Shown piece after piece: positions 1 to 7,268 of a DNA stretch of 7,268 bases. How positions within the stretch are numbered: position 1 is the stretch's first letter; each line of letters opens with the position of its first letter. This DNA is from a virus. The notes beneath the pieces were generated by a model. That model saw nothing but the letters and a program-made list of their open reading frames with translations. It was not told the DNA's origin and searched no databases. The position numbers and the translations under genes are program-made. Where the stretch lies: IMG/VR virus record IMGVR_UViG_3300008807_000984, positions 1-7,268 of that record; one strand, 5' to 3'.

Positions 1-99
1 ATAGCTATCGAATCGTGAAACACGATTGCAAGAAATCATGAAACCCTCTGCACGCATACGCTCCTGCCGATGGCTGCGTGTCGCTGTCTAAACGCAGTC
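1..99. repeat. Left copy of the 99-nt exact terminal direct repeat (circular wrap-around)
   Basis: atagctatcgaatcgtgaaacacgattgcaag...gtcgctgtctaaacgcagtc is identical to 7170-7268. The right copy is cut by the window end, so the true overlap is at least 99 nt. Confidence 0.95.
11..27. repeat. Inverted repeat aatcgtg-aaa-cacgatt just after the repressor stop; function unknown
   Basis: 7-bp stem and 3-nt loop read directly; also present at 7180-7196. No T-run follows on either strand, so it is not a canonical intrinsic terminator. Confidence 0.3.
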
Positions 100-130
100 G
101 CCCCCCCCGCAAGCGGGGTCCCCCCCCGAC
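97..130. repeat. Twin homopolymer tracts: gtcg-C8-gcaagc-gggg-t-C8-gac (G8...G8 on the gene-sense strand)
   Basis: C runs at 101-108 and 120-127 flank a ccccgc/gcgggg mini-hairpin. The outer gtcg/cgac are also inverted. Read directly. Confidence 0.9.
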
Positions 131-229
131 TGCAGACAGCGAGGCGGGGCTTTCCCAAGTAGCAGCGAGCACGGTGCACGAAGGTAGAGAAAGTCAAAGG
201 CGGTCTACAGGACGCGGTGAGCGCAGACG

Positions 230-312
230 CAGAACGACCGAACCAGCCGCGTCCGAGCACCACAGCAGATCGACCGCTCACCCCGGCCGCCCGACAGAAC
301 GACCCGCGAACC
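230..312. repeat. Intergenic direct repeat cagaacgacc(-/cgc)gaacc, two copies
   Basis: 230-244 is cagaacgaccgaacc; 295-312 is cagaacgacccgcgaacc. These are the same 15 nt with a 3-nt insertion, and the copies start 65 nt apart. Confidence 0.7.
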
Positions 313-446
313 GAATAGGGCCGCGCCCTGGCACGGTACGGGCTTGGTCTGTATGTCTCGCTCGCGCGAGCCATGTTTGTGGGCCTGCGGCCGGAGCCGG
401 CTGACGCCGGAACAAGAAAACCGACACCGACCCGGGTGCAACGAGC

Positions 447-476
447 ACGCCAGGTCGGGCCAGTAACGCCAGGTCG
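447..476. repeat. Intergenic 11-nt direct repeat acgccaggtcg, two copies
   Basis: 447-457 and 466-476 are identical, 19 nt start-to-start. Confidence 0.8.
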
Positions 477-500
477 AGAACCCCGCCGCAGGACGGGGCC
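472..500 (-). terminator. Candidate weak intrinsic terminator downstream of the 82-aa ORF
   Basis: The minus strand reads CCCCG(T)CC-TGC-GGCGGGG followed by TTCTCGACC, about 55 nt after the TAG at 553-555. The GC-rich stem has one bulge and the U-tract is poor. Confidence 0.3.
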
Positions 501-552
501 TCAGCTCAGTCGCTCATGGTCGACCCGCCCAGCGACGTTACCCAGAACCCGA

Positions 553-801
553 CTACACAGGAGCGAACAACACGTCGACCTTGAAACCGATCTGCTCAAG
601 AGCCGAGACGGCGGAATCAAGCGTCTTGAATTGCCGGGCCTCGTGATCCCGAGCGTCGACCAGCCAGCTTGCACCGTTACCCTTGCCAAGCCAGATGAAC
701 CAGCCGCCGCGCTTCCCGGTCGTCAAATCCCACCGCTTGACCTCGAATCGATCCAGGTAACCCAACTCGAAATCCCGCTTCGCTTGCGCCATCGTCGCCA
801 T
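553..801 (-). CDS. Hypothetical 82-aa cytoplasmic protein; independently promoted cargo gene downstream of zot
   Basis: ATG at 801 preceded by AAGGGG-N7, the same SD and spacing as the ssb gene. TAG stop at 553-555. Its own TTGACA-N17-TAACAT promoter lies upstream. Composition looks globular (MATMAQAKRDFELGYLDRFEVKRWDL...), with no signal peptide or TM. I do not recognise a family. Confidence 0.75.
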   Translation of the reverse strand: MATMAQAKRDFELGYLDRFEVKRWDLTTGKRGGWFIWLGKGNGASWLVDARDHEARQFKTLDSAVSALEQIGFKVDVLFAPV

Positions 802-835
802 CTTCGAACCCCTTACGTTTGTTGAAAGAGACTAG

Positions 836-864
836 ATGTTACGACGTTTCCTGCTTTTTGTCAA
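836..864 (-). promoter_or_regulatory. Sigma70-like promoter for the 82-aa ORF
   Basis: Minus strand: TTGACA (864-859), a 17-nt spacer, then TAACAT (841-836). The predicted start is about 28 nt upstream of the ATG at 801. Confidence 0.5.
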
Positions 865-872
865 GAGGTTTT

Positions 873-911
873 GCCTGTTTTGTTCCACGTGGAACAGGCA
901 ATAGTTGAGTG
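873..911. promoter_or_regulatory. 16-bp perfect palindrome tgttccac/gtggaaca with flanking gcc/ggc and adjacent aatagttgagtg; candidate Rep-binding or origin element
   Basis: The palindrome at 881-896 was read directly. It shares the words TTGTTCCA, TGGAACA, TCCACGT, AATAGT and (inverted) CACTCAAC with the f1/M13 plus-strand origin core as I recall it from phagemid vectors. It lies between the zot stop (928) and the ORF82 promoter. Confidence 0.35.
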
Positions 912-927
912 CCATGTAGGGCATTGA

Positions 928-2094
928 TCACCGCCCGGCCAGGTCGCCCACCTGGCCGACGACTGGCGAATAAACGCCCGCGACGGTCGCCCCCTTGGAG
1001 GATGCCGCCGCTGCCGCCTGGGGCGGCATCGGCGGCTGAGCAGGCGCAGACACCGGACGGGCAGACTCTGCCGCTTGCGCGTCGGCCTGCACTCCGTCTG
1101 GCAGGAACTCGAGGAACGGCATCCGCTCCACCCACTGCGCGCAGATCGATTCAGGCGTATGCAACGCTTGCCCCCGCTGGTTGTAACACTCGCACCGCCG
1201 CCGGGAACGAACGCACCCGACGGGATACTCCACCGCAACCGCCGCAGTCAGCTTTCCGTACACCGGCGCGCTGTAGGGCAACCCCGGTACAACGGGCCGC
1301 CGCGCCGCCATGTACTCGGCAACAGTGCCAGCCGGCAAAACCCGATCCTCGAGAACCGAGCCCGCATCCGCCAAACGCCGGCCCGCGCCCTCGACCTCCG
1401 AAGCAACCTCACCGACCGCCCCCGACAACCGACCGAAGGCGTACCAGCCGACGCCGAGTGTTACCGCGACCAAGAGCGCCCCCAGCCACACCGCACGCGG
1501 CACCCGCCGCACCCGCGGCGTATGCAGTTCGGCGCTTTTGTACAGCCCGAAGACCTCCGCCGGAGGCTGATACCGGACGCGCTCCGCCAGCTTGCGCGAA
1601 CCGACCTCATCCGGAGCGCCTATCTGCCCATCCCAGAACAGGAGCGACGCCCCGTAAGCCGTGCTATGCACGTGGTAATGCCGGTTGACCAGCTTGCGCA
1701 CAGCCGCATCTATCAGACCCGGATGCTGCGTGATCAAAATCACGTCCACGCCCACATGCCGACGCGTGCTCAGCGCCGCGACGTGATCGGGCACACGCGA
1801 CCCTATCGGCCTCGGTGGATAGACCCTCTGCGCCTCGTCCACGACCAGAACGCACCCCTGAGGCAGGCAGAAATACGCGAGCTGGAGAGTCGCGTCTTCC
1901 TCAGCCCGCCGCAGCTCCGTCCACTCTGCAACCGGCGGAGCCGGAGCATGTTCGACACGCAGATCGGGAATCCCGTGCACAAGCACATGCCGCCCCTGCG
2001 AACGCCGGAGCCAATCGACCACCAGAGCGGTTTTTCCCGATCCGGTCGCGCCTGTTACGAGCGTCAGACCCTGCGAGATCCCCAACGTCCTCAC
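928..2094 (-). CDS. zot: Zot-like / inovirus pI morphogenesis (assembly) ATPase
   Basis: 388 aa. Walker A GATGSGKT (aa 14-21) and Walker B-like VLVVDEAQ (aa 82-89). One TM segment, AVWLGALLVAVTLGVGWYAF (about aa 201-220). The periplasmic C-terminal part carries CECYNQRGQ. The GTG start at 2094 overlaps the upstream TGA (GTGA). It is the last gene of the morphogenesis block. Confidence 0.9.
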   Translation of the reverse strand: MRTLGISQGLTLVTGATGSGKTALVVDWLRRSQGRHVLVHGIPDLRVEHAPAPPVAEWTELRRAEEDATLQLAYFCLPQGCVLVVDEAQRVYPPRPIGSRVPDHVAALSTRRHVGVDVILITQHPGLIDAAVRKLVNRHYHVHSTAYGASLLFWDGQIGAPDEVGSRKLAERVRYQPPAEVFGLYKSAELHTPRVRRVPRAVWLGALLVAVTLGVGWYAFGRLSGAVGEVASEVEGAGRRLADAGSVLEDRVLPAGTVAEYMAARRPVVPGLPYSAPVYGKLTAAVAVEYPVGCVRSRRRCECYNQRGQALHTPESICAQWVERMPFLEFLPDGVQADAQAAESARPVSAPAQPPMPPQAAAAASSKGATVAGVYSPVVGQVGDLAGR

Positions 2095-2366
2095 GGTCGC
2101 TTACCCAGCCGCGCCGCCGCGACCAGCCCGGCCCGAGCAACGAGCGCACCCAGCATGATCCCCACGGCACCCGTCAAACCGGCCAGGTTGGCGAGCGCAA
2201 GCATCGCCGCCGGCATCCCTCCCCACAAGGCGATCACCTGCGCCTGCACCGACGCAGCCAGCGTATTGAGAACCTCGTAGGTGAGCCACACGATACCAAG
2301 ACTGGCGAGCACCTTCGCGGCCAGCGGGCCCGCCATCGCCAACAGCCATGCAGCCAAGTTACCCAT
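2091..2366 (-). CDS. pVI-like small hydrophobic minor coat / virion-cap protein (DUF2523-like by architecture)
   Basis: 91 aa and almost entirely hydrophobic with 2-3 predicted TM helices (MGNLAAWLLAMAGPLAAKVLASLGIVWL...). It sits between the pIII-like gene and zot, as in CTXphi ace and Ff gVI. The ATG at 2366 overlaps the pIII-like stop by 8 nt (ATGGGTAA). Confidence 0.65.
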   Translation of the reverse strand: MGNLAAWLLAMAGPLAAKVLASLGIVWLTYEVLNTLAASVQAQVIALWGGMPAAMLALANLAGLTGAVGIMLGALVARAGLVAAARLGKRP

Positions 2367-3837
2367 TGCGCACCCCGCCTACCACGAAGATCCCCGCTCC
2401 CAACCACGCGAGAGCCAGCACGAGCGGACGCACGTAGCCAGCCAGCAAACACGCGCCGTCGAACGGCACCGACCACTGCAAGACTTGAACCGGAGCCGGG
2501 CAGCCCAACGCCTCACCCGGCAGCCCGACAGCCGACACCCCGCCGCCGGTACCAGACGCGCTATCAGCACCCCCACCGGACGCCGGAGCGCCGAGACACG
2601 CAGGACCGTAGGGATCATCCCGACACGCGCTGCTACCATCGCCCTGCGTCTGGCTGCCCGTCGACGCGCTTGTACTGGTGCTAGTACCATTCGTCGCCGT
2701 TCCGCTCGAGCCCCCCCCGGCATTCGTTACCGTCGTCGTCGAGTTACAAGAACCGCCAGTACAAGTCTGCGTCTGCGTCGTCGCCGTCGTGCCCCCGCCA
2801 GGACCCGTCACGACACTCGTTTTCTTCGTCGAGGTCGTCTGCGCATCCACGCACACCACCGTACCGTTGACCGTGCCCCACTGCTTGCCAGCCTTCGCGC
2901 AATCCGCCTCAGGCGTATTCGGCTGCACAACCGGACTCGTCCCGGGAGCAGATGAACACGTAGCACCAGTGAACGAAGGCGAGCCGATCCAGAACCAATT
3001 GCCGCTCGTGCCATAGCCCGCGCCCGAATACTCGCTCCCGAGCGTCACCGTGCACCCCGACACGCACGTCGTCGCAGGTACAGTCGCGCCCACCCCCGTA
3101 TAGATCCGATAGTCAATCGTCAGCGGCTGATCAACCACGCGATACGGGTCACCGCCAACCCCGTTCGCCATGTACTTCCCCGCCGGGCAGGCGGTGCACG
3201 TGCCATCAGACGCCCGCCCGTACTGGCAGTCGGGACGGGTGCACTGATTGCCCTGCAAAGTCCAGTTCTGGCCCGCCGGGCACGAGTAGACCGAACCCTG
3301 ACTACAGGTCCACCCCGGGTACGAGCCCACGATGCTTCCCGCCGCGCAGTACCAATCCCGCCTGAGCTGATAAGTCCAACCCGATCCGCCGTTCCCCATC
3401 TGCGTAGCACTCTGACGAACCGTGAACCACTCGACGACACCACTACCGGCACCATCGTAAGCCGCTGGCCTCGGCGGAGGAGTAACACTCCAATACGACG
3501 GACCATAAGCCCAACCCCCGGCACCCGCCGCGCTGTAGTGTTGCAACGCCCGCGACTGCGCCTCGGAATACGTGCCCGTAAACGGAGCGCCCCAAGGCCC
3601 AGCCCAAGACTCGAGAGGCACAGCAGAACCCGCGGTCGCCGCTATCGTTTCCGCCCTCGCCGGCACGAGCCAGACGAAAGCGATCAGCACCCCGAACGCG
3701 AACGCCAGCAGCCCCCGCACCACACGCCAGATCACAGTCGCCACACCAGCACGCCACCAAGAAGAACGACGGTCAGGAACCCCGACCACTGCAGAAACAC
3801 GATGTCCACCGCTCACCCTCTCAGAAAGCGCCCCCAC
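2359..3837 (-). CDS. pIII-like adsorption / minor coat protein (start uncertain: GTG 3837, GTG 3816 or GTG about 3744)
   Basis: It is the largest ORF of the coat-to-zot block and lies immediately before the pVI-like gene. It has a signal-peptide-like segment, RGLLAFAFGVLIAFVWLVPARA/ETIA. I count 18 Cys in the ectodomain. A G/S/T-rich linker (TNAGGGSSGTATNGTSTSTSASTGSQTQGDGSS) precedes a C-terminal hydrophobic anchor, LVLALAWLGAGIFVVGG. GTG 3816 forms GTGA with the upstream stop. Confidence 0.7.
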   Translation of the reverse strand: MGALSERVSGGHRVSAVVGVPDRRSSWWRAGVATVIWRVVRGLLAFAFGVLIAFVWLVPARAETIAATAGSAVPLESWAGPWGAPFTGTYSEAQSRALQHYSAAGAGGWAYGPSYWSVTPPPRPAAYDGAGSGVVEWFTVRQSATQMGNGGSGWTYQLRRDWYCAAGSIVGSYPGWTCSQGSVYSCPAGQNWTLQGNQCTRPDCQYGRASDGTCTACPAGKYMANGVGGDPYRVVDQPLTIDYRIYTGVGATVPATTCVSGCTVTLGSEYSGAGYGTSGNWFWIGSPSFTGATCSSAPGTSPVVQPNTPEADCAKAGKQWGTVNGTVVCVDAQTTSTKKTSVVTGPGGGTTATTQTQTCTGGSCNSTTTVTNAGGGSSGTATNGTSTSTSASTGSQTQGDGSSACRDDPYGPACLGAPASGGGADSASGTGGGVSAVGLPGEALGCPAPVQVLQWSVPFDGACLLAGYVRPLVLALAWLGAGIFVVGGVRNG

Positions 3838-4196
3838 GCCAGCACACCGACCGCGACCGCGACCGCCGCTTGCTCGAACGCAACAACCACGCCGAAGTCA
3901 CCCGCATAGTCGACCGGATAGGTCACTCCCGGCGAGCACATCGACCCCATGTACAAATTGCTCCCCTGCACGGTGTACGACCCGCCAAACGCACGACGAA
4001 GAACGGTAATCGTGCCCGGGCCGAACGCATCGCCCAGCCCAACGGACCAGCAATAGTCGCCCCCGGTACCGCAACCGGCATCGCGCCCGACGAACGCCCA
4101 AGAACAGTAGCCAGTCTCCGGCAGGTACTGCCACGGGTCGCCGCCAGGCGCACCGAAAGCAGGTGCCGCAGGAGCACCAGGTGGAAGCGCAGGCAT
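3813..4196 (-). CDS. Hypothetical 127-aa protein with C-terminal hydrophobic anchor (putative minor virion or morphogenesis protein)
   Basis: The ATG at 4196 overlaps the upstream TAA by one base (TAATG). It has a P/A/G-rich N-terminus, 4 Cys, and the C-terminal segment FGVVVAFEQAAVAVAVGVLAWGRFLRG. Third-position G/T bias matches the other genes. The longer track ORF (to 4232) would overlap the upstream gene by 37 nt. Confidence 0.55.
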   Translation of the reverse strand: MPALPPGAPAAPAFGAPGGDPWQYLPETGYCSWAFVGRDAGCGTGGDYCWSVGLGDAFGPGTITVLRRAFGGSYTVQGSNLYMGSMCSPGVTYPVDYAGDFGVVVAFEQAAVAVAVGVLAWGRFLRG

Positions 4197-4534
4197 TACA
4201 AGAGCTGCCGCCGGATCACCGCGGCCCACCAAGCGACCAACAACACACCGAGAACCAGCATGCCAACCGCCGCGCCATCGACGAACGCGCCCGCCGGGTC
4301 ACAGGTGGCGACGCCCGACGAACTCACCGGCACCGAACCGCACGCCAGACCCGACCGCACCGCCGTCGAACTCAATTGCGCCCGGCAGAACTGCCAGCCC
4401 GCAGACGCATCCTTCTTGAAGAAGGTTTCATACGTAGTCGCCGCAGGGTTGTACGTCGGAGGAATCGCTCCGAAAGTGGCGTCCTGCCACTGTTCCCACG
4501 TGTCGTAACACATCGTTCCCCGCAAGTAACCCAC
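4196..4534 (-). CDS. 112-aa tail-anchored protein whose C-terminal 28 aa align without gaps to the major coat protein (coat paralog / putative minor coat)
   Basis: The GTG at 4534 is preceded by GGGAGG-N8. There are 4 Cys and no N-terminal signal peptide. The C-terminus VDGAAVGMLVLGVLLVAWWAAVIRRQLL aligns to the coat ADAITVATAMVGVTAALLVFRYIRRQLH with 10/28 identical residues, including IRRQL at the same distance from the stop. Confidence 0.6.
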   Translation of the reverse strand: MGYLRGTMCYDTWEQWQDATFGAIPPTYNPAATTYETFFKKDASAGWQFCRAQLSSTAVRSGLACGSVPVSSSGVATCDPAGAFVDGAAVGMLVLGVLLVAWWAAVIRRQLL

Positions 4535-4548
4535 GCGGCAGACCTCCC

Positions 4549-4575
4549 GAAGAAGAAGGGCCGCCGCAGCGGCCC
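4549..4575 (-). terminator. Intrinsic (probably leaky) terminator immediately after the major coat gene
   Basis: The minus strand reads GGGCCGC-TGCG-GCGGCCC followed by TTCTTCTTC, starting 11 nt after the coat TAA. The SD (GGGAGG) of the next gene follows directly. This matches the position of the attenuating terminator after gVIII in Ff phages. Confidence 0.6.
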
Positions 4576-4585
4576 GGACGCCGGC

Positions 4586-4771
4586 TTAGTGAAGCTGGCG
4601 ACGGATGTACCGGAAGACCAGGAGCGCCGCGGTAACGCCGACCATGGCGGTCGCCACCGTGATCGCATCGGCCTGCAGATCGGTAATGGCCGTGGTGATG
4701 GCCGTCGGAACGGCAGCGAACGCGCTCAGCGGAGCGATGGAGACGGCAACGCCGGCAATCTTCTTGATCAT
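4586..4771 (-). CDS. Major coat protein (g8p-type) precursor, 61 aa
   Basis: ATG at 4771 with a consensus AGGAGG-N6 SD. The signal peptide MIKKIAGVAVSIAPLSAFA has an AFA/A cleavage motif. The mature protein is about 42 aa, with an acidic/polar N-terminus (TDLQAD), a hydrophobic core and a basic C-terminus (RYIRRQLH). The 144-aa track ORF is a spurious upstream extension into rep. Confidence 0.9.
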   Translation of the reverse strand: MIKKIAGVAVSIAPLSAFAAVPTAITTAITDLQADAITVATAMVGVTAALLVFRYIRRQLH

Positions 4772-4783
4772 GACAAACCTCCT

Positions 4784-4846
4784 GAAAGGAAAAAGGAACG
4801 CACCATTGCGCCCCCGCAAGCCCCAAGGCTTGCAGTGAAACACTGG
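4784..4846 (-). promoter_or_regulatory. rep-coat intergenic stem-loops plus pyrimidine tract upstream of the coat SD
   Basis: Minus strand after the rep TAG: CAGTG-TTT-CACTG, then GCAAGCC-TTGG-GGCTTGC (4833-4816), then TTCCTTTTTCCTTTC (4798-4784) abutting AGGAGG. The structures were read directly. Whether this is an attenuator, a processing site or a translational enhancer is unknown. Confidence 0.3.
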
Positions 4847-4848
4847 CA

Positions 4849-5808
4849 CTACGCCGCCAACGCGGACACCTGACGCACCTCCACCTGCCGAACTACCCGA
4901 GTGAGAGCCTGCACATTGCACGGGACCCGGATATCGAAACCGCACGCAAGCAGACGATTCGCGACCCGGTGGAAGGTCGATTCCGCGCACAACGACCGCA
5001 CGTCGACACCATCCCGCCAAAGGACGGCGTAATGACGCAGCCGCGCCGGAATCTCATCCCACCGCTCGACACTCACCGAATCGCGGAACACCTGGCCCGC
5101 GAACCGCCCATAAATCACCTTCGCCATATCATCACCCGTGCCCCATGCCTCTACCGTGTCCAAACCTGCCCGACGCAGGTACTCCGCCCCCAGTTGAACC
5201 TCGAACCGAGCGACCGTAGGCCCAACGCCCCCCCGCTTCTTCCCGGCCAGCTCCGCAGTCTTGTCGTACAGCTTCGCCCGGTACCAGCCCGCGCGCTTCG
5301 CCCCGTAGCCCCACGTCGGCCCGTACCTCCCCATGATCGGGAGAATCCGCCCGATCCGCCGCACCGACATCGCGTGGCACAAACCCGCGTAATCGCTTAC
5401 CTCGTAGTTGCCGGCGAGGTCCACACGCGTCACCACGGTACCGAGCCGCCCGAACTCCGACCGAGAACCGGCAGACCCGAAGTCATGCAGCTCGAAGCCG
5501 CACACATCAAGAAGCACTCGCGCACGCTCGGCGCAATGAGCAACCGAATAGCCCCGCAGATTGTCCGCCCGCCCGTACCGCCCGATATTGCCGCTCACCC
5601 GCAGAGTGCGACCGTCGCACCGCGCCCTGATCGACGTGTCGCTGGACTCGCACCGGATGGAATCCCAACACTGAGACTGCCACTCCAGACAGCCGTCGGG
5701 ATCGAGCTTCAGGACCCGCCCGGACTCGCGCATGGGCACCCCATCCTGATAGGTGTGGACCAGCGTCAACCAGTCACAACAAACCGATTCCACGTGCCCG
5801 ACTCTCAC
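4849..5808 (-). CDS. Rolling-circle replication initiation protein, phage gene II/X (Phage_CRI-like) family
   Basis: 319 aa. It has an N-terminal CDWLTLVH motif, RVDLAGNYEV, and the Tyr-containing AKLYDKT motif, which I recall as typical of gpII/RstA-type inovirus Rep proteins. Size and position fit an inovirus replication module. The GTG start at 5808 lies inside an 18-bp palindrome (alternative GTG at 5793). Confidence 0.8.
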   Translation of the reverse strand: MRVGHVESVCCDWLTLVHTYQDGVPMRESGRVLKLDPDGCLEWQSQCWDSIRCESSDTSIRARCDGRTLRVSGNIGRYGRADNLRGYSVAHCAERARVLLDVCGFELHDFGSAGSRSEFGRLGTVVTRVDLAGNYEVSDYAGLCHAMSVRRIGRILPIMGRYGPTWGYGAKRAGWYRAKLYDKTAELAGKKRGGVGPTVARFEVQLGAEYLRRAGLDTVEAWGTGDDMAKVIYGRFAGQVFRDSVSVERWDEIPARLRHYAVLWRDGVDVRSLCAESTFHRVANRLLACGFDIRVPCNVQALTRVVRQVEVRQVSALAA

Positions 5809-5846
5809 ATGTGAGAGTTAGTTGCAGTGGTACTAGCACTGCAACT
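5801..5846. promoter_or_regulatory. Two adjacent dyads at the rep 5' end: an 18-bp perfect palindrome and a 10-bp-stem hairpin
   Basis: actctcacatgtgagagt (5801-5818) is a perfect palindrome containing the rep GTG. agttgcagtg-gtactag-cactgcaact (5820-5846) is a perfect 10-bp stem with a 7-nt loop. Both were read directly. Confidence 0.6.
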
Positions 5847-5866
5847 CGAAAACCGACCGTTTCCGG

Positions 5867-6067
5867 TCATGCCGCAGGCACCCCGGCAAGCTGCAATTGA
5901 TCGCCGCGCAGCGCATCCGAATCCCGACAGACGAGCGGCTGATGGCCAGCACAGTAAGCAGTCACGTCAGTCAGCGTGCCAACCCGAGAACAAAGCGCCT
6001 GACCCCTGGCCGGCGCAGTCGGCTTGCGAGCGTGCCGGCAGTTGAGACATTGCGCGTGCTCGCTCAC
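5867..6067 (-). CDS. Hypothetical small Cys-rich protein (66 aa from GTG 6067; 69 aa from GTG 6076)
   Basis: GTG 6067 forms GTGA with the upstream stop. The protein contains CLNC plus three further Cys. The stop at 5867-5869 precedes the rep-proximal hairpins. No family recognised. Confidence 0.45.
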   Translation of the reverse strand: MSEHAQCLNCRHARKPTAPARGQALCSRVGTLTDVTAYCAGHQPLVCRDSDALRGDQLQLAGVPAA

Positions 6068-6330
6068 TGTGCCCACTCCGACCCGTCAATGCCGCCGCAC
6101 ACATACGCGACATGTTGATCCGCCGTGAAATCCCCGACATCCAGGCAGCGACCCGTCGCACCCTCCACGAAACCACGCCAGTAAGCCAAGCGCAGCTCAC
6201 GCGGAAAAGCCTTGGCCAGCCGTTGAGCTTGCCTGCGAGCAATCACACCAAAAGCCACCAGATCAGGATGAGTCAGCGAGAACTCATCCACGCCCCGAAC
6301 AGTCACGCTCACGACCTCAGGCGCGTTCAC
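6064..6330 (-). CDS. Hypothetical 88-aa protein (GTG start coupled to the ssb stop)
   Basis: GTG 6330 overlaps the ssb TGA (GTGA). Composition looks globular (VNAPEVVSVTVRGVDEFSLTHPDLVAFGVIARRQAQRLAKAF...). The 158-aa track ORF would overlap ssb by 214 nt, and its extension is Arg/Gly/Ala-rich and junk-like. No family recognised. Confidence 0.5.
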   Translation of the reverse strand: MNAPEVVSVTVRGVDEFSLTHPDLVAFGVIARRQAQRLAKAFPRELRLAYWRGFVEGATGRCLDVGDFTADQHVAYVCGGIDGSEWAQ

Positions 6331-6635
6331 GCCGCAGACCTCGTCGCTGCGACCGTGGCCGAGGTAGCCGGCTTCAGCCGGAGACGCAGATCGAGCATGC
6401 GGAACCGATCCACGAAGAACGACGACGGGCAAATCGTATAGCTCCCAGGCGGGTAGGGCGCTTGGGTGTCCTCCAGACCGACCACCACCCGCTCGGGATG
6501 CGGCCGGACACGGCCCTCTTTGTCGCAGGTATGCACCCACGCCTCTTGCTCCCGAATGCTGTACTTCTTGCCGGTGCGCTGGCTCACACCCTCCTTGGTG
6601 ACGACTTCCGCACTGCTGATTTCCACTCGTAACAT
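6327..6635 (-). CDS. ssDNA-binding protein, inovirus G5P-like
   Basis: 102 aa, ATG at 6635 with AAGGGG-N7 SD. The sequence pattern MLRVEISSAEVVTKEGVSQRTGKKYSIREQEAWVH...PPGSYTICPSSFFVDRF...LRLKPA runs parallel to the Pf3-type ssDNA-binding protein as I recall it (short beta-rich OB fold, P-x-GSY motif, basic C-terminus). It is the first gene of the leftward operon. Confidence 0.75.
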   Translation of the reverse strand: MLRVEISSAEVVTKEGVSQRTGKKYSIREQEAWVHTCDKEGRVRPHPERVVVGLEDTQAPYPPGSYTICPSSFFVDRFRMLDLRLRLKPATSATVAATRSAA

Positions 6636-6664
6636 TTGCTTGCCCCTTGCGTTAGTTGGTAGGC

Positions 6665-6680
6665 GTCCGGCGAACCGGAC
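6665..6680. promoter_or_regulatory. Operator-like dyad O1: gtccgg-cgaa-ccggac
   Basis: Perfect 6-4-6 inverted repeat, located just downstream of the putative -10 of the leftward promoter, around the predicted transcription start. Confidence 0.4.
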
Positions 6681-6686
6681 ACCGCA

Positions 6687-6715
6687 ACGATAGTCCTGTC
6701 AGCCGGACGTTGCAA
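6687..6715 (-). promoter_or_regulatory. Putative leftward promoter of the ssb-to-zot operon
   Basis: Minus strand: TTGCAA (6715-6710), a 17-nt spacer, then TATCGT (6692-6687). The spacer is filled by dyad O2 (6693-6708). Confidence 0.4.
6693..6708. promoter_or_regulatory. Operator-like dyad O2: gtcctg-tcag-ccggac
   Basis: It has the same 6-4-6 geometry as O1 with one mismatch, 28 bp centre-to-centre from O1. It lies exactly within the -35/-10 spacer of the leftward promoter and abuts the shared TTGCAA. Confidence 0.35.
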
Positions 6716-6737
6716 GTCCTGCGAGAAGGTCTACGAT
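6710..6737 (+). promoter_or_regulatory. Putative rightward promoter of the repressor gene, sharing the palindromic -35 hexamer
   Basis: Plus strand: TTGCAA (6710-6715), a 16-nt spacer, then TACGAT (6732-6737). This predicts a start near 6744, which would favour the ATG at 6772 (SD AGGAG at 6759-6763) over the ATG at 6736. Confidence 0.35.
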
Positions 6738-6771
6738 GAAGAAGCAGAGTTGTGCAGTAGGAGAAACAGAA

Positions 6772-7173
6772 ATGACCCCAAGCGATTATCTCGACGCAGC
6801 GAAGCAAGCTATGGGCATCGCAAGCGACTACGAATTGGCGAAGCGACTCGATGTCCGCAGGCAGAGAATCAGCGCCTACAGAAACGGCACCGACTGGCCG
6901 GAAAATTACGTCGTCATGAAGATCGCCATAGCCCTGAACCTAGACCCGGTGGGCGTTCTAGCCGATTTGGAAAGCCAGAAGGAGAAGCGACCCGAACGCG
7001 CCGCATTCTGGAAGTCTTTTCTATCGCGTGCCGCCCTGCTGGCAGTCTTGGCGTGCACGCTGGCGTGGATTTCTACCGATATTTCGCTGCCCGGACTCGC
7101 GCGGATTTCTGGCGGAAGCGGGACTGACTATGCCGATGGACTTCGTATAATTTGGAGTTACGTAAGCCCATAG
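6772..7173 (+). CDS. HTH (Cro/C1-XRE-like) phage repressor with C-terminal hydrophobic helix; alternative start ATG 6736
   Basis: This is the only plus-strand gene and it diverges from the structural operon, as rstR does in CTXphi. The HTH-like segment is IASDYELAKRLDVRRQRISAYRNG. A hydrophobic stretch, AALLAVLACTLAWI, lies near the C-terminus. AGGAG-N8-ATG at 6772. The region is visibly lower in GC than the rest of the genome. The stop TAG (7171-7173) lies within the terminal repeat. Confidence 0.75.
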   Translation: MTPSDYLDAAKQAMGIASDYELAKRLDVRRQRISAYRNGTDWPENYVVMKIAIALNLDPVGVLADLESQKEKRPERAAFWKSFLSRAALLAVLACTLAWISTDISLPGLARISGGSGTDYADGLRIIWSYVSP

Positions 7174-7268
7174 CTATCGAATCGTGAAACACGATTGCAA
7201 GAAATCATGAAACCCTCTGCACGCATACGCTCCTGCCGATGGCTGCGTGTCGCTGTCTAAACGCAGTC
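7170..7268. repeat. Right copy of the 99-nt terminal direct repeat
   Basis: Base-for-base identical to 1-99 (offset 7,169). It contains the repressor stop codon TAG at 7171-7173 (equivalent to nt 2-4). Confidence 0.95.

Follow-up and report, generated by a model that had tools for sequence, protein, structure and literature searches.

An 82-residue protein encoded at the zot–replication junction of uncultivated inoviruses is a putative divergent relative of plasmid ParC proteins

In the genome of CTXphi, the ctxAB genes are located directly after zot and are preceded by their own promoter. The stretch of viral DNA analysed here (IMG/VR record IMGVR_UViG_3300008807_000984, positions 1 to 7,268; the whole 7,268-nt stretch is referred to as the window) shows a similar arrangement, in which the slot directly after zot is occupied by a gene for an 82-residue protein with a promoter of its own, and an earlier note on this DNA had interpreted the gene as cargo at the ctxAB-equivalent position. 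The locus thus raises the question whether such a gene is a passenger of the phage or a part of the replicon. We designate the family of the 82-residue protein fam82. The comparisons summarized below present fam82 as a real and strongly conserved gene with its own conserved promoter, whose product appears to form a divergent branch of the ParC superfamily and not to be a member of the ParC family proper; they speak for a function tied to the replicon and not for a toxin of host conversion, and the analogy to ctxAB is positional only.

The fam82 gene of the window is located on the minus strand at positions 553..801, with an ATG at 801 and a TAG stop codon at 555-553, exactly as the earlier note had it, and its Shine-Dalgarno sequence AAGGGG, again as described there, can be read at 814-809 (feature 809..814, minus strand), 7 nt before the ATG; a purine-rich Shine-Dalgarno sequence is kept in the related loci L013 and L003. 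The upstream neighbour is zot (928..2094, minus strand), which encodes the pI-type assembly ATPase and whose stop at 928 was confirmed together with matches to Pfam Zot (5.5e-18) and PHROG 197 (3.6e-59). The near-consensus sigma70-type promoter TTGACA-N17-TAACAT is indeed present at 836..864 of the minus strand (TTGACA at 864-859, TAACAT at 841-836), with 10 of 12 consensus matches. The whole window contains just one further sigma70-like match, and shuffled sequences contain 0.9 on average, but the hexamers and their spacing are identical upstream of the orthologues in L013 and L003, even though the coding DNA of these is only 70-76% identical to that of the window; it is mainly this conservation in diverged relatives that excludes a chance origin of the promoter. 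In both loci, the stretch GTTCCACGTGGAACAAAAC...AAACCTCTTGACA-N17-TAACAT is nearly base-for-base the same, and the proposal that the gene is independently promoted in the slot after zot was therefore borne out.

Conservation of the protein is equally pronounced. There are 52 close homologues at E≤0.01, and an exhaustive profile search returned 389 fam82 clusters at 50% identity, nearly all of them stand-alone proteins of about 80 residues. Longer members were considered as possible domain fusions, a view that was rejected, as their N-terminal extensions resemble miscalled starts and contain no Pfam domains. The ratio of nonsynonymous to synonymous substitution rates (dN/dS) against near relatives is 0.09-0.17, and fam82 is under strong purifying selection. 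It is the best-conserved protein of the genome, with 90% identity to its counterpart in L003, compared to 75% for the replication protein Rep, 70% for the single-stranded DNA-binding protein (SSB), 64% for the repressor, 61% for Zot, and 48% for the g3p-like protein. The orthologue in L013 is still 78% identical, while the Zot protein of L013 is not detectably similar to that of the window. In the family alignment, invariant or nearly invariant positions are concentrated in two blocks, TMAQAKRDFxIGYL and RxFKTLDAAVSALEQIGFKV.

The distribution of the family bears directly on the question of cargo or backbone. In all of the approximately 14 metagenomic inovirus lineages examined, fam82 is found at the same junction, i.e. 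between zot or the secretin gene and the replication or regulation module, and 'after zot' is consequently equally well described as 'before rep'. The carriers include window-like phages with a G2P-type Rep (L003-L008, L013-L015), phages with Rep_1 (L009, L011, L028), phages with a Phage_CRI Rep (L016, L030, L031), and a locus in a Nitrosomonas metagenome-assembled genome (L032). The same junction is occupied in L037 and in L027, the latter ending before any rep gene. Only L029, an IMG/VR contig, is oriented differently: its fam82 gene (1983-2198) lies on the strand opposite to zot and rep and is convergent with rep, which may be a rearrangement or an assembly artefact; all other lineages have zot, fam82, and rep on one strand, with fam82 in the middle. 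The survey of the post-zot slot that had been suggested in the earlier note thus found the gene in this slot in the inovirus lineages checked, but as a constant occupant and not as variable cargo. A scan of genome contigs gave a single match, the prophage-like Nitrosomonas locus. Plasmid carriers are a TrfA plasmid of Janthinobacterium and a MobQ plasmid of Iodobacter, in which fam82 follows mobQ. In the 12.3-kb record of the latter (plasmid pl3, L002), a 236-aa coiled-coil/transmembrane protein is also encoded together with the fam82-like gene after mobQ, and the record consists of two tandem copies of a unit of about 6.3 kb, so that BrnT/BrnA, rep, PAAR, mob, and mobQ are each listed twice; it is probably a dimer or an assembly artefact.

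Two of the relatives show how the surroundings of the gene vary. Between L013 and the window, Rep, SSB, the repressor, and fam82 are 62-78% identical and g3p only 36%, and Zot of L013 is a protein of 293 aa encoded at 3428-4309 (compare zot of the window at 928-2094). It appears from this comparison that the morphogenesis module of L013 was exchanged and that fam82 with its promoter stayed with the replication and regulation genes. In L003 (6680-6895) and also in L004-L008, an extra open reading frame (ORF) of 71 codons is inserted between the conserved promoter and fam82, which it overlaps by ATGA. This ORF is missing from the window and from L013, resembles none of the other ORFs found next to fam82, and is without a match in Pfam.

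The smallest carrier is a circle of 2205 bp. Its fam82 member, protein P0017, is 59% identical to the protein of the window; the index of the collection lists it in 528 blocks, in each case on contigs shorter than 5 kb. The circle closes in three independent assemblies (L033, L034, and L035, with end overlaps of 141, 141, and 55 nt) whose units are 99.9-100% identical, and a fourth contig, L036, matches it at 99.9% without an exact end overlap. Its only confident genes are those for a 402-aa Rep of the G2P/CRI type, which is closest to Rep of the window (44% identity), and for fam82; a 39-aa reverse ORF (L033 1197-1316) is doubtful. The circle may represent a minimal plasmid with rolling-circle replication (RCR) or an inovirus satellite. 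Since fam82 is kept in such a minimal replicon and is better conserved than Rep, it is unlikely to be dispensable cargo.

A relationship to known proteins was found for plasmid ParC only. Sub-threshold matches to NCBIfam NF041544 ('ParC family partition-associated protein') were obtained for 30 of 53 fam82 members, the best with E 2.3e-4; the protein of the window scores 13.6 bits (E 0.041) and does not reach the curated cut-off of 95 bits, and none of the 52 homologues carries a precomputed PF28031 annotation. In hhalign comparisons, fam82 aligned to ParC (Rms149 and plasmids of Xanthomonas, Bordetella, Pandoraea, and Pseudomonas) with 89.6% and E 1.9e-6 over 53 columns, and to PF28031-annotated proteins of small ColE1-like and Aeromonas plasmids with 92.7% and E 4.2e-7; the latter group aligned to ParC with 96.5% and E 1e-9. 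The hidden Markov model of fam82 was matched by five of five ParC sequences. Both fam82 and ParC are small, stand-alone, basic proteins that have in common a core of beta-sheet and C-terminal helix and the motif R-x-F-(K/R)-(S/T)-(L/F)-D-(A/G)-A-x(3)-L-x-Q-x-G. They differ in that the C-terminal GW(I/V)P(R/K)T segment of ParC is absent from fam82, whose alignment ends soon after IGFKV, and in that fam82 has its own conserved N-terminal helix, TMAQAKRDFxIGYL.

The genetic contexts are comparable in part. The plasmid parC unit consists of promoter, gene, strong hairpin, and rep, and is located between the par centromere repeats and rep; parC thus resembles fam82 of the relatives in having its own hairpin and in directly preceding the replication gene of a small replicon. 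The full context of ParC is parA - parB - parS - parC - rep, however, and the window encodes neither ParA nor ParB, so that the fam82 relatives match this context only in the 'upstream of rep' part. Moreover, the carrier here is a filamentous phage, whereas ParC proteins are carried by IncP-6/IncG (Rms149), Xanthomonas, Bordetella, Pandoraea, small ColE1-like, and Aeromonas plasmids and are annotated in 357 PLSDB records. Other entities bearing the name ParC (that of pMF1, the parCBA genes of RP4, and the parC site of R1) were considered and found to be unrelated.

The AlphaFold2 (AF2) model calculated from the family alignment has a mean predicted local distance difference test score (pLDDT) of 88.9 and shows a compact globular protein with the order alpha-beta-beta-beta-alpha (H4-13, E19-23, E34-38, E45-48, H61-71). 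The same order is found in the ParC model (H29-38, E43-51, E54-61, E64-71, H81-90, and C-terminal extras), which is of low confidence (pLDDT 63.6). No long hydrophobic stretch is visible in fam82, at the N-terminus or elsewhere, in agreement with the earlier statement that a signal peptide and transmembrane segments are absent. Searches of Pfam (E≤1), PHROG, PADLOC, and PDB sequences with the protein or the profile gave no match, and searches of Pfam, NCBIfam, and PADLOC for toxin or antitoxin families were likewise without a match. The structure search proposed in the earlier note, carried out with Foldseek against PDB and BFVD, yielded no core inovirus function but also nothing significant at all, only uncharacterised phage proteins and weak matches of the double-stranded RNA-binding domain (dsRBD) type. 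The dsRBD chains had E>0.7, a probability of ≤0.14, and TM scores of 0.26-0.34, with agreement in the order of elements only, and neither dsRBD nor HicA was matched in Pfam (E≤1). The claim that the protein is not a virion or replication component stands to the extent that no relationship to such proteins was detectable. In 50,697 deposited phage records searched by tblastn (E≤1), fam82 is absent, and no vibriophage inovirus was among the matches.

How far, then, does the comparison with ctxAB carry? Beyond slot and promoter there is no sequence or structural similarity: fam82 is a single 82-aa protein of cytoplasmic type without a signal peptide, and neither AB5 toxin homology nor a signal peptide was found with Pfam, PHROG, NCBIfam, or the AF2 model. 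Unlike lineage-specific toxin cargo, it is present at the same junction in very different inoviruses and, in addition, on plasmids and on the Rep-only circle. Some traits are those of a moron, namely the conserved promoter of its own, a lower local G+C content (0.53-0.61 at the gene versus 0.65-0.70 in neighbouring DNA), and the absence from deposited phages, the downstream hairpin being weak; they are countered by the constancy of the junction across about 14 inovirus lineages and by the rank of fam82 as best-conserved protein. The interpretation as variable cargo comparable to ctxAB is not supported, in view of a fixed junction with three Rep types (Rep_1, Phage_CRI, and G2P), this conservation, the occurrence in the Rep circle, and the homology to ParC. 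In its place, fam82 can be regarded as what appears to be a functional accessory gene of small replicons that is predicted to be separately transcribed.

In the promoter region of the gene, three A-tract repeats (854..883, minus strand; ACAAAAC at 883-877, GCAAAAC at 874-868, and ACAAAAAG at 861-854) flank or overlap the -35 hexamer and are a candidate operator or UP-like element. A perfect 16-bp palindrome, TGTTCCACGTGGAACA (881..896, minus strand), has its centre some 59 nt ahead of the predicted start of transcription; it is the sole exact copy in the genome, is kept exactly in L013 and L003 while its flanks diverge, and represents a candidate regulator-binding site. The helix-turn-helix (HTH) repressor of the phage was considered as the binder of this palindrome and rejected, as the repressor-ssb region contains repeats of the GTCCGG type and no GTTCCAC half-site, and the palindrome is unique. 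An outer stem around the palindrome, considered as a hairpin of RNA or single-stranded DNA (ssDNA), was likewise dismissed, as it is not conserved in L013 and L003, where the inner palindrome alone is kept.

In most of the other lineages, a near-consensus sigma70 promoter is located directly upstream of fam82 (TTGACA-16-TATAAT in L031 and the 2.2-kb circle), and the A-tract (TTGACAAAAAG/C) typically follows right after the -35 hexamer. The most widely shared upstream hexamer, commoner than TTGACA itself, is ACAAAA, which occurs within 130 nt upstream of fam82 in 15 of 16 lineages (0.68 expected; unbiased hexamer count). In L009, L011, and L028, the A-tract forms one arm of the inverted repeat AACAAAAAGnnnTTTTTGTT in the promoter spacer, and close variants of this repeat are found in L030, L037, and pA12BJ1; L032 and the 2.2-kb circle have direct repeats instead of inverted ones.

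On this basis we tentatively favour the view that fam82 binds nucleic acid, controls its own expression, and serves small replicons as a factor of maintenance or regulation, an explanation that we consider possible and hold with reserve. The protein would bind nucleic acid, most likely the promoter repeats in the double-stranded replicative form, and would repress its own promoter; where rep is the next gene downstream, as in many relatives, it would thereby set the level of transcription entering the replication module. Its role would thus be that of a Cop-like regulator of dosage or maintenance, and not that of a virion protein, a replication enzyme, or a toxin. In the window clade, rep would have moved behind a separate, repressor-controlled promoter; fam82, which is followed there by the non-coding region, would be expressed from a constitutive sigma70 promoter of its own and would act in trans. 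The charge of the proteins fits this view: the median isoelectric point is 9.1 for the fam82 family, 10.8 for the PF28031 small-plasmid group, and 10.0 for ParC, values that suit nucleic-acid binding and not a DNA mimic.

Copy-number repressors of the CopG type are known from rolling-circle plasmids, as in the copG-repB unit of pMV158. A CopG-like layout, consisting of an inverted-repeat promoter, a small gene, and the rep gene of a rolling-circle replicon, is seen in L009, L011, L028, L030, L037, and the 2.2-kb circle. In contrast to CopG, however, the predicted fold of fam82 is alpha-beta-beta-beta-alpha and not ribbon-helix-helix, and a hairpin is interposed between fam82 and rep; the window does not show the layout, as its rep is located elsewhere, behind a different promoter.

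Several points weigh against a regulator of this kind. The fam82 protein of the window itself is near neutral (isoelectric point 8.1), and no DNA-binding fold, neither HTH nor ribbon-helix-helix, was recognised by Foldseek in PDB or BFVD. The N-terminal helix is almost invariant, yet the inverted repeats vary between clades, so that, if the protein reads DNA, only the common ACAAAA element fits. No gene is located downstream of fam82 in the window, and cis control of rep therefore cannot apply there. Since fam82 occurs alongside very different replication systems, a regulator dedicated to a single Rep is less plausible. Furthermore, the A-tracts could merely be UP-like promoter features and the palindrome could be bound by a host factor. 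Finally, no functional study of the ParC family NF041544/PF28031 was found in the literature, and parC of pRA2 was reported not to be required for stability and perhaps not to encode a protein (Kwong 2001, as cited in PMC3235114).

Among the alternatives, a host-directed accessory gene, a moron in the wider sense, is unlikely but comes nearest to the proposal of the earlier note. Here fam82 would bind a conserved host protein and help small circular replicons to become established, for example by blocking a plasmid- or phage-targeting defence or by excluding superinfection, and a strong promoter of the host type would switch it on as soon as the double-stranded form has arisen. A near-consensus sigma70 promoter in almost all lineages, the G+C content below that of the rest of the genome, the absence from all cultured phages, and the occurrence on replicons with unrelated replication systems (G2P, CRI, Rep_1, TrfA, and MobQ plasmids) are in line with such a role; a conservation exceeding that of any phage protein is what a conserved host partner would lead one to expect, and retention in the two-gene circle is also compatible with a need for anti-defence. 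However, there was no PADLOC match and no match to solved structures, anti-defence proteins included (PDB up to 2026), the basic charge of the superfamily and the operator-like promoter repeats are left unexplained, and the fixed place beside the replication module, together with ParC upstream of rep, suggests a link to the replicon.

Distinctly less probable is a role as structure-specific binder of non-coding hairpins, such as the minus-strand origin, the packaging signal, or the plus origin, in which fam82 would assist the conversion of ssDNA to double-stranded DNA or packaging. The alpha-beta-beta-beta-alpha topology with its recurring weak dsRBD matches and the mostly basic character of the family agree with this role, as do the position of the gene, which always borders a large hairpin-rich non-coding region, and the carriers with an actual or possible ssDNA stage (inoviruses, RCR circles, and MobQ and MobV plasmids). 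Yet several carriers, including pA12BJ1, are typed as non-mobilizable, the dsRBD resemblance is below significance in both the Foldseek and the Pfam comparison, the non-coding hairpins vary by lineage while the protein is highly conserved, and cultured inoviruses do without fam82.

A third candidate function follows from a satellite. RstC is the antirepressor of RS1, a satellite of CTXphi, and its gene follows rstB. Like fam82, RstC is a protein of about 75-80 aa that accompanies replication genes on a minimal inovirus-derived element. By analogy, fam82 would inactivate the HTH repressor (6736-7173) and turn on the phage genes, and the version on the circle would activate a helper prophage; we regard this as very unlikely. 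The circle with Rep and fam82 does resemble a satellite, the divergent HTH repressor of the window clade is conserved together with fam82, and the gene is small and has its own promoter. But nothing detectably similar to fam82 was found in the deposited phage records, where the tblastn search (E≤1) gave no match in a vibriophage inovirus, the position differs from that of RstC, the family also occurs in phages and plasmids without this type of repressor, and the homology points to ParC of plasmids that lack it as well. A toxin-antitoxin-like module of two genes, with fam82 as one partner, was rejected as extremely improbable: small neighbouring ORFs do overlap fam82 by ATGA (the 71-aa ORF in L003 and a 79-aa ORF in L016) or lie downstream of it (L011, L016, pA12BJ1), but they are not homologous to one another and belong to no Pfam family, fam82 has no such companion in the window, in L013, or on the abundant 2.2-kb circle, and no toxin or antitoxin family was matched.

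The genome in which the gene resides is that of a complete circular inovirus with a unit of 7169 nt; bases 1-99 of the window are identical to 7170-7268, a 99-nt assembly overlap, and the stop codon of the repressor gene at 7173 corresponds to position 4. By virtue of this circularity, fam82 is followed by a non-coding region of 548 nt, on the far side of which the convergent repressor gene has its 3' end. The gene order is that of an inovirus, and every recognisable gene but one is located on the minus strand. The exception encodes the 145-aa HTH repressor (6736-7173, plus strand), which is divergent from the other genes. On the minus strand follow the gene for the G5P-type SSB (6635-6327), rep for a G2P/CRI-type Rep (5808-4849), the coat region, which lies between rep and the g3p-like gene in the listed gene order, the g3p-like gene (3837-2359), a DUF2523 (g6p-like) gene (2366-2091), zot, and fam82. 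A near-identity DNA search with the whole window found no match among deposited phages, Rep is at most 26% identical to that of cultured inoviruses, and an Rfam scan of the window revealed nothing relevant.

Further cis elements were noted outside the fam82 promoter. Just upstream of the rep start (5808), a hairpin AGTTGCAGTG-CTAGTAC-CACTGCAACT (5818-5847, minus strand) may be the plus-strand origin, in which case its loop would contain the nick site; it is followed by the palindrome CTCTCACATGTGAGAG, which overlaps the rep start codon. The 18-mer TAGTACCACTGCAACTAA at this hairpin recurs without change in L003-L007 and the 2.2-kb circle, and the version in L013 and L014 differs by one gap and one mismatch over 31 nt. 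The divergent intergenic region between the repressor gene and ssb (6640-6735) contains three GTCCGG/CCGGAC repeats, CGTCCGGCT, GTGTCCGGTT, and GCCGGACGC, which are likely operators of the 145-aa repressor and are unrelated to the palindrome at the fam82 promoter.

Downstream of fam82, the GC hairpin mentioned in the earlier note is present at 479..500 of the minus strand (CCCCG / 8-nt loop / CGGGG), but it is weak as a terminator: a U-run is missing, a terminator scan did not report it, and its local fold is no better than that of shuffled sequences (z = -1.24), so that it is at best a possible terminator. L013, L003, and the 2.2-kb circle each have another hairpin just past the fam82 stop codon. 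The GC-rich non-coding region extends from 5 to 552, between fam82 and the convergent repressor gene, and its bases 81-357 are 71% identical to L003, L004, and L007. It includes a long G-rich hairpin at about 75-140 of the minus strand (CGCTGTCTGCAGTCG-G8-ACCCCGC..GCGG-G8-CGACTGCG..), which is also present in L003 at 7470-7525; long ORFs at 36-374 (minus) and 78-404 (plus) look like artefacts of the high G+C content. The region may hold a packaging signal, the minus-strand origin, or attP. With respect to the last, the L003 contig, inspected from 7560 to 7860, departs from phage homology after 'cgatagct' (about 7600) and enters a gene for an alpha/beta-hydrolase (7843-8409), and beside this junction there is a sequence like the XerD arm of dif (TTATGTTAGG, reverse complement). 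These features point to L003 as a prophage inserted into a dif-like site and to a location of attP near positions 1-20 of the window.

Inovirus genes that follow zot are commonly taken for cargo of host conversion; at this position fam82 behaves like replicon backbone, and it ties uncultivated inoviruses to a plasmid protein family, ParC, that is annotated in hundreds of plasmids. A more far-reaching view, which we regard as doubtful, is that fam82 and ParC together form an unrecognised superfamily of establishment or maintenance factors common to filamentous phages, small plasmids, and the widespread 2.2-kb circle, with a new mechanism and a new small alpha-beta-beta-beta-alpha fold; possible modes of action would be the recognition of ACAAAA-type repeats or DNA hairpins or the neutralisation of a host system directed against small circular DNA. 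If this were true, the name 'ParC' would be wrong in implying a role in partition, and a backbone function at the zot-rep junction of inoviruses would have gone unnoticed owing to its absence from every cultured inovirus. With its two genes, the circle provides, together with the short conserved promoter, a very small experimental system for the function of the superfamily, and knowledge of this function would improve the annotation of both plasmids and filamentous phages.

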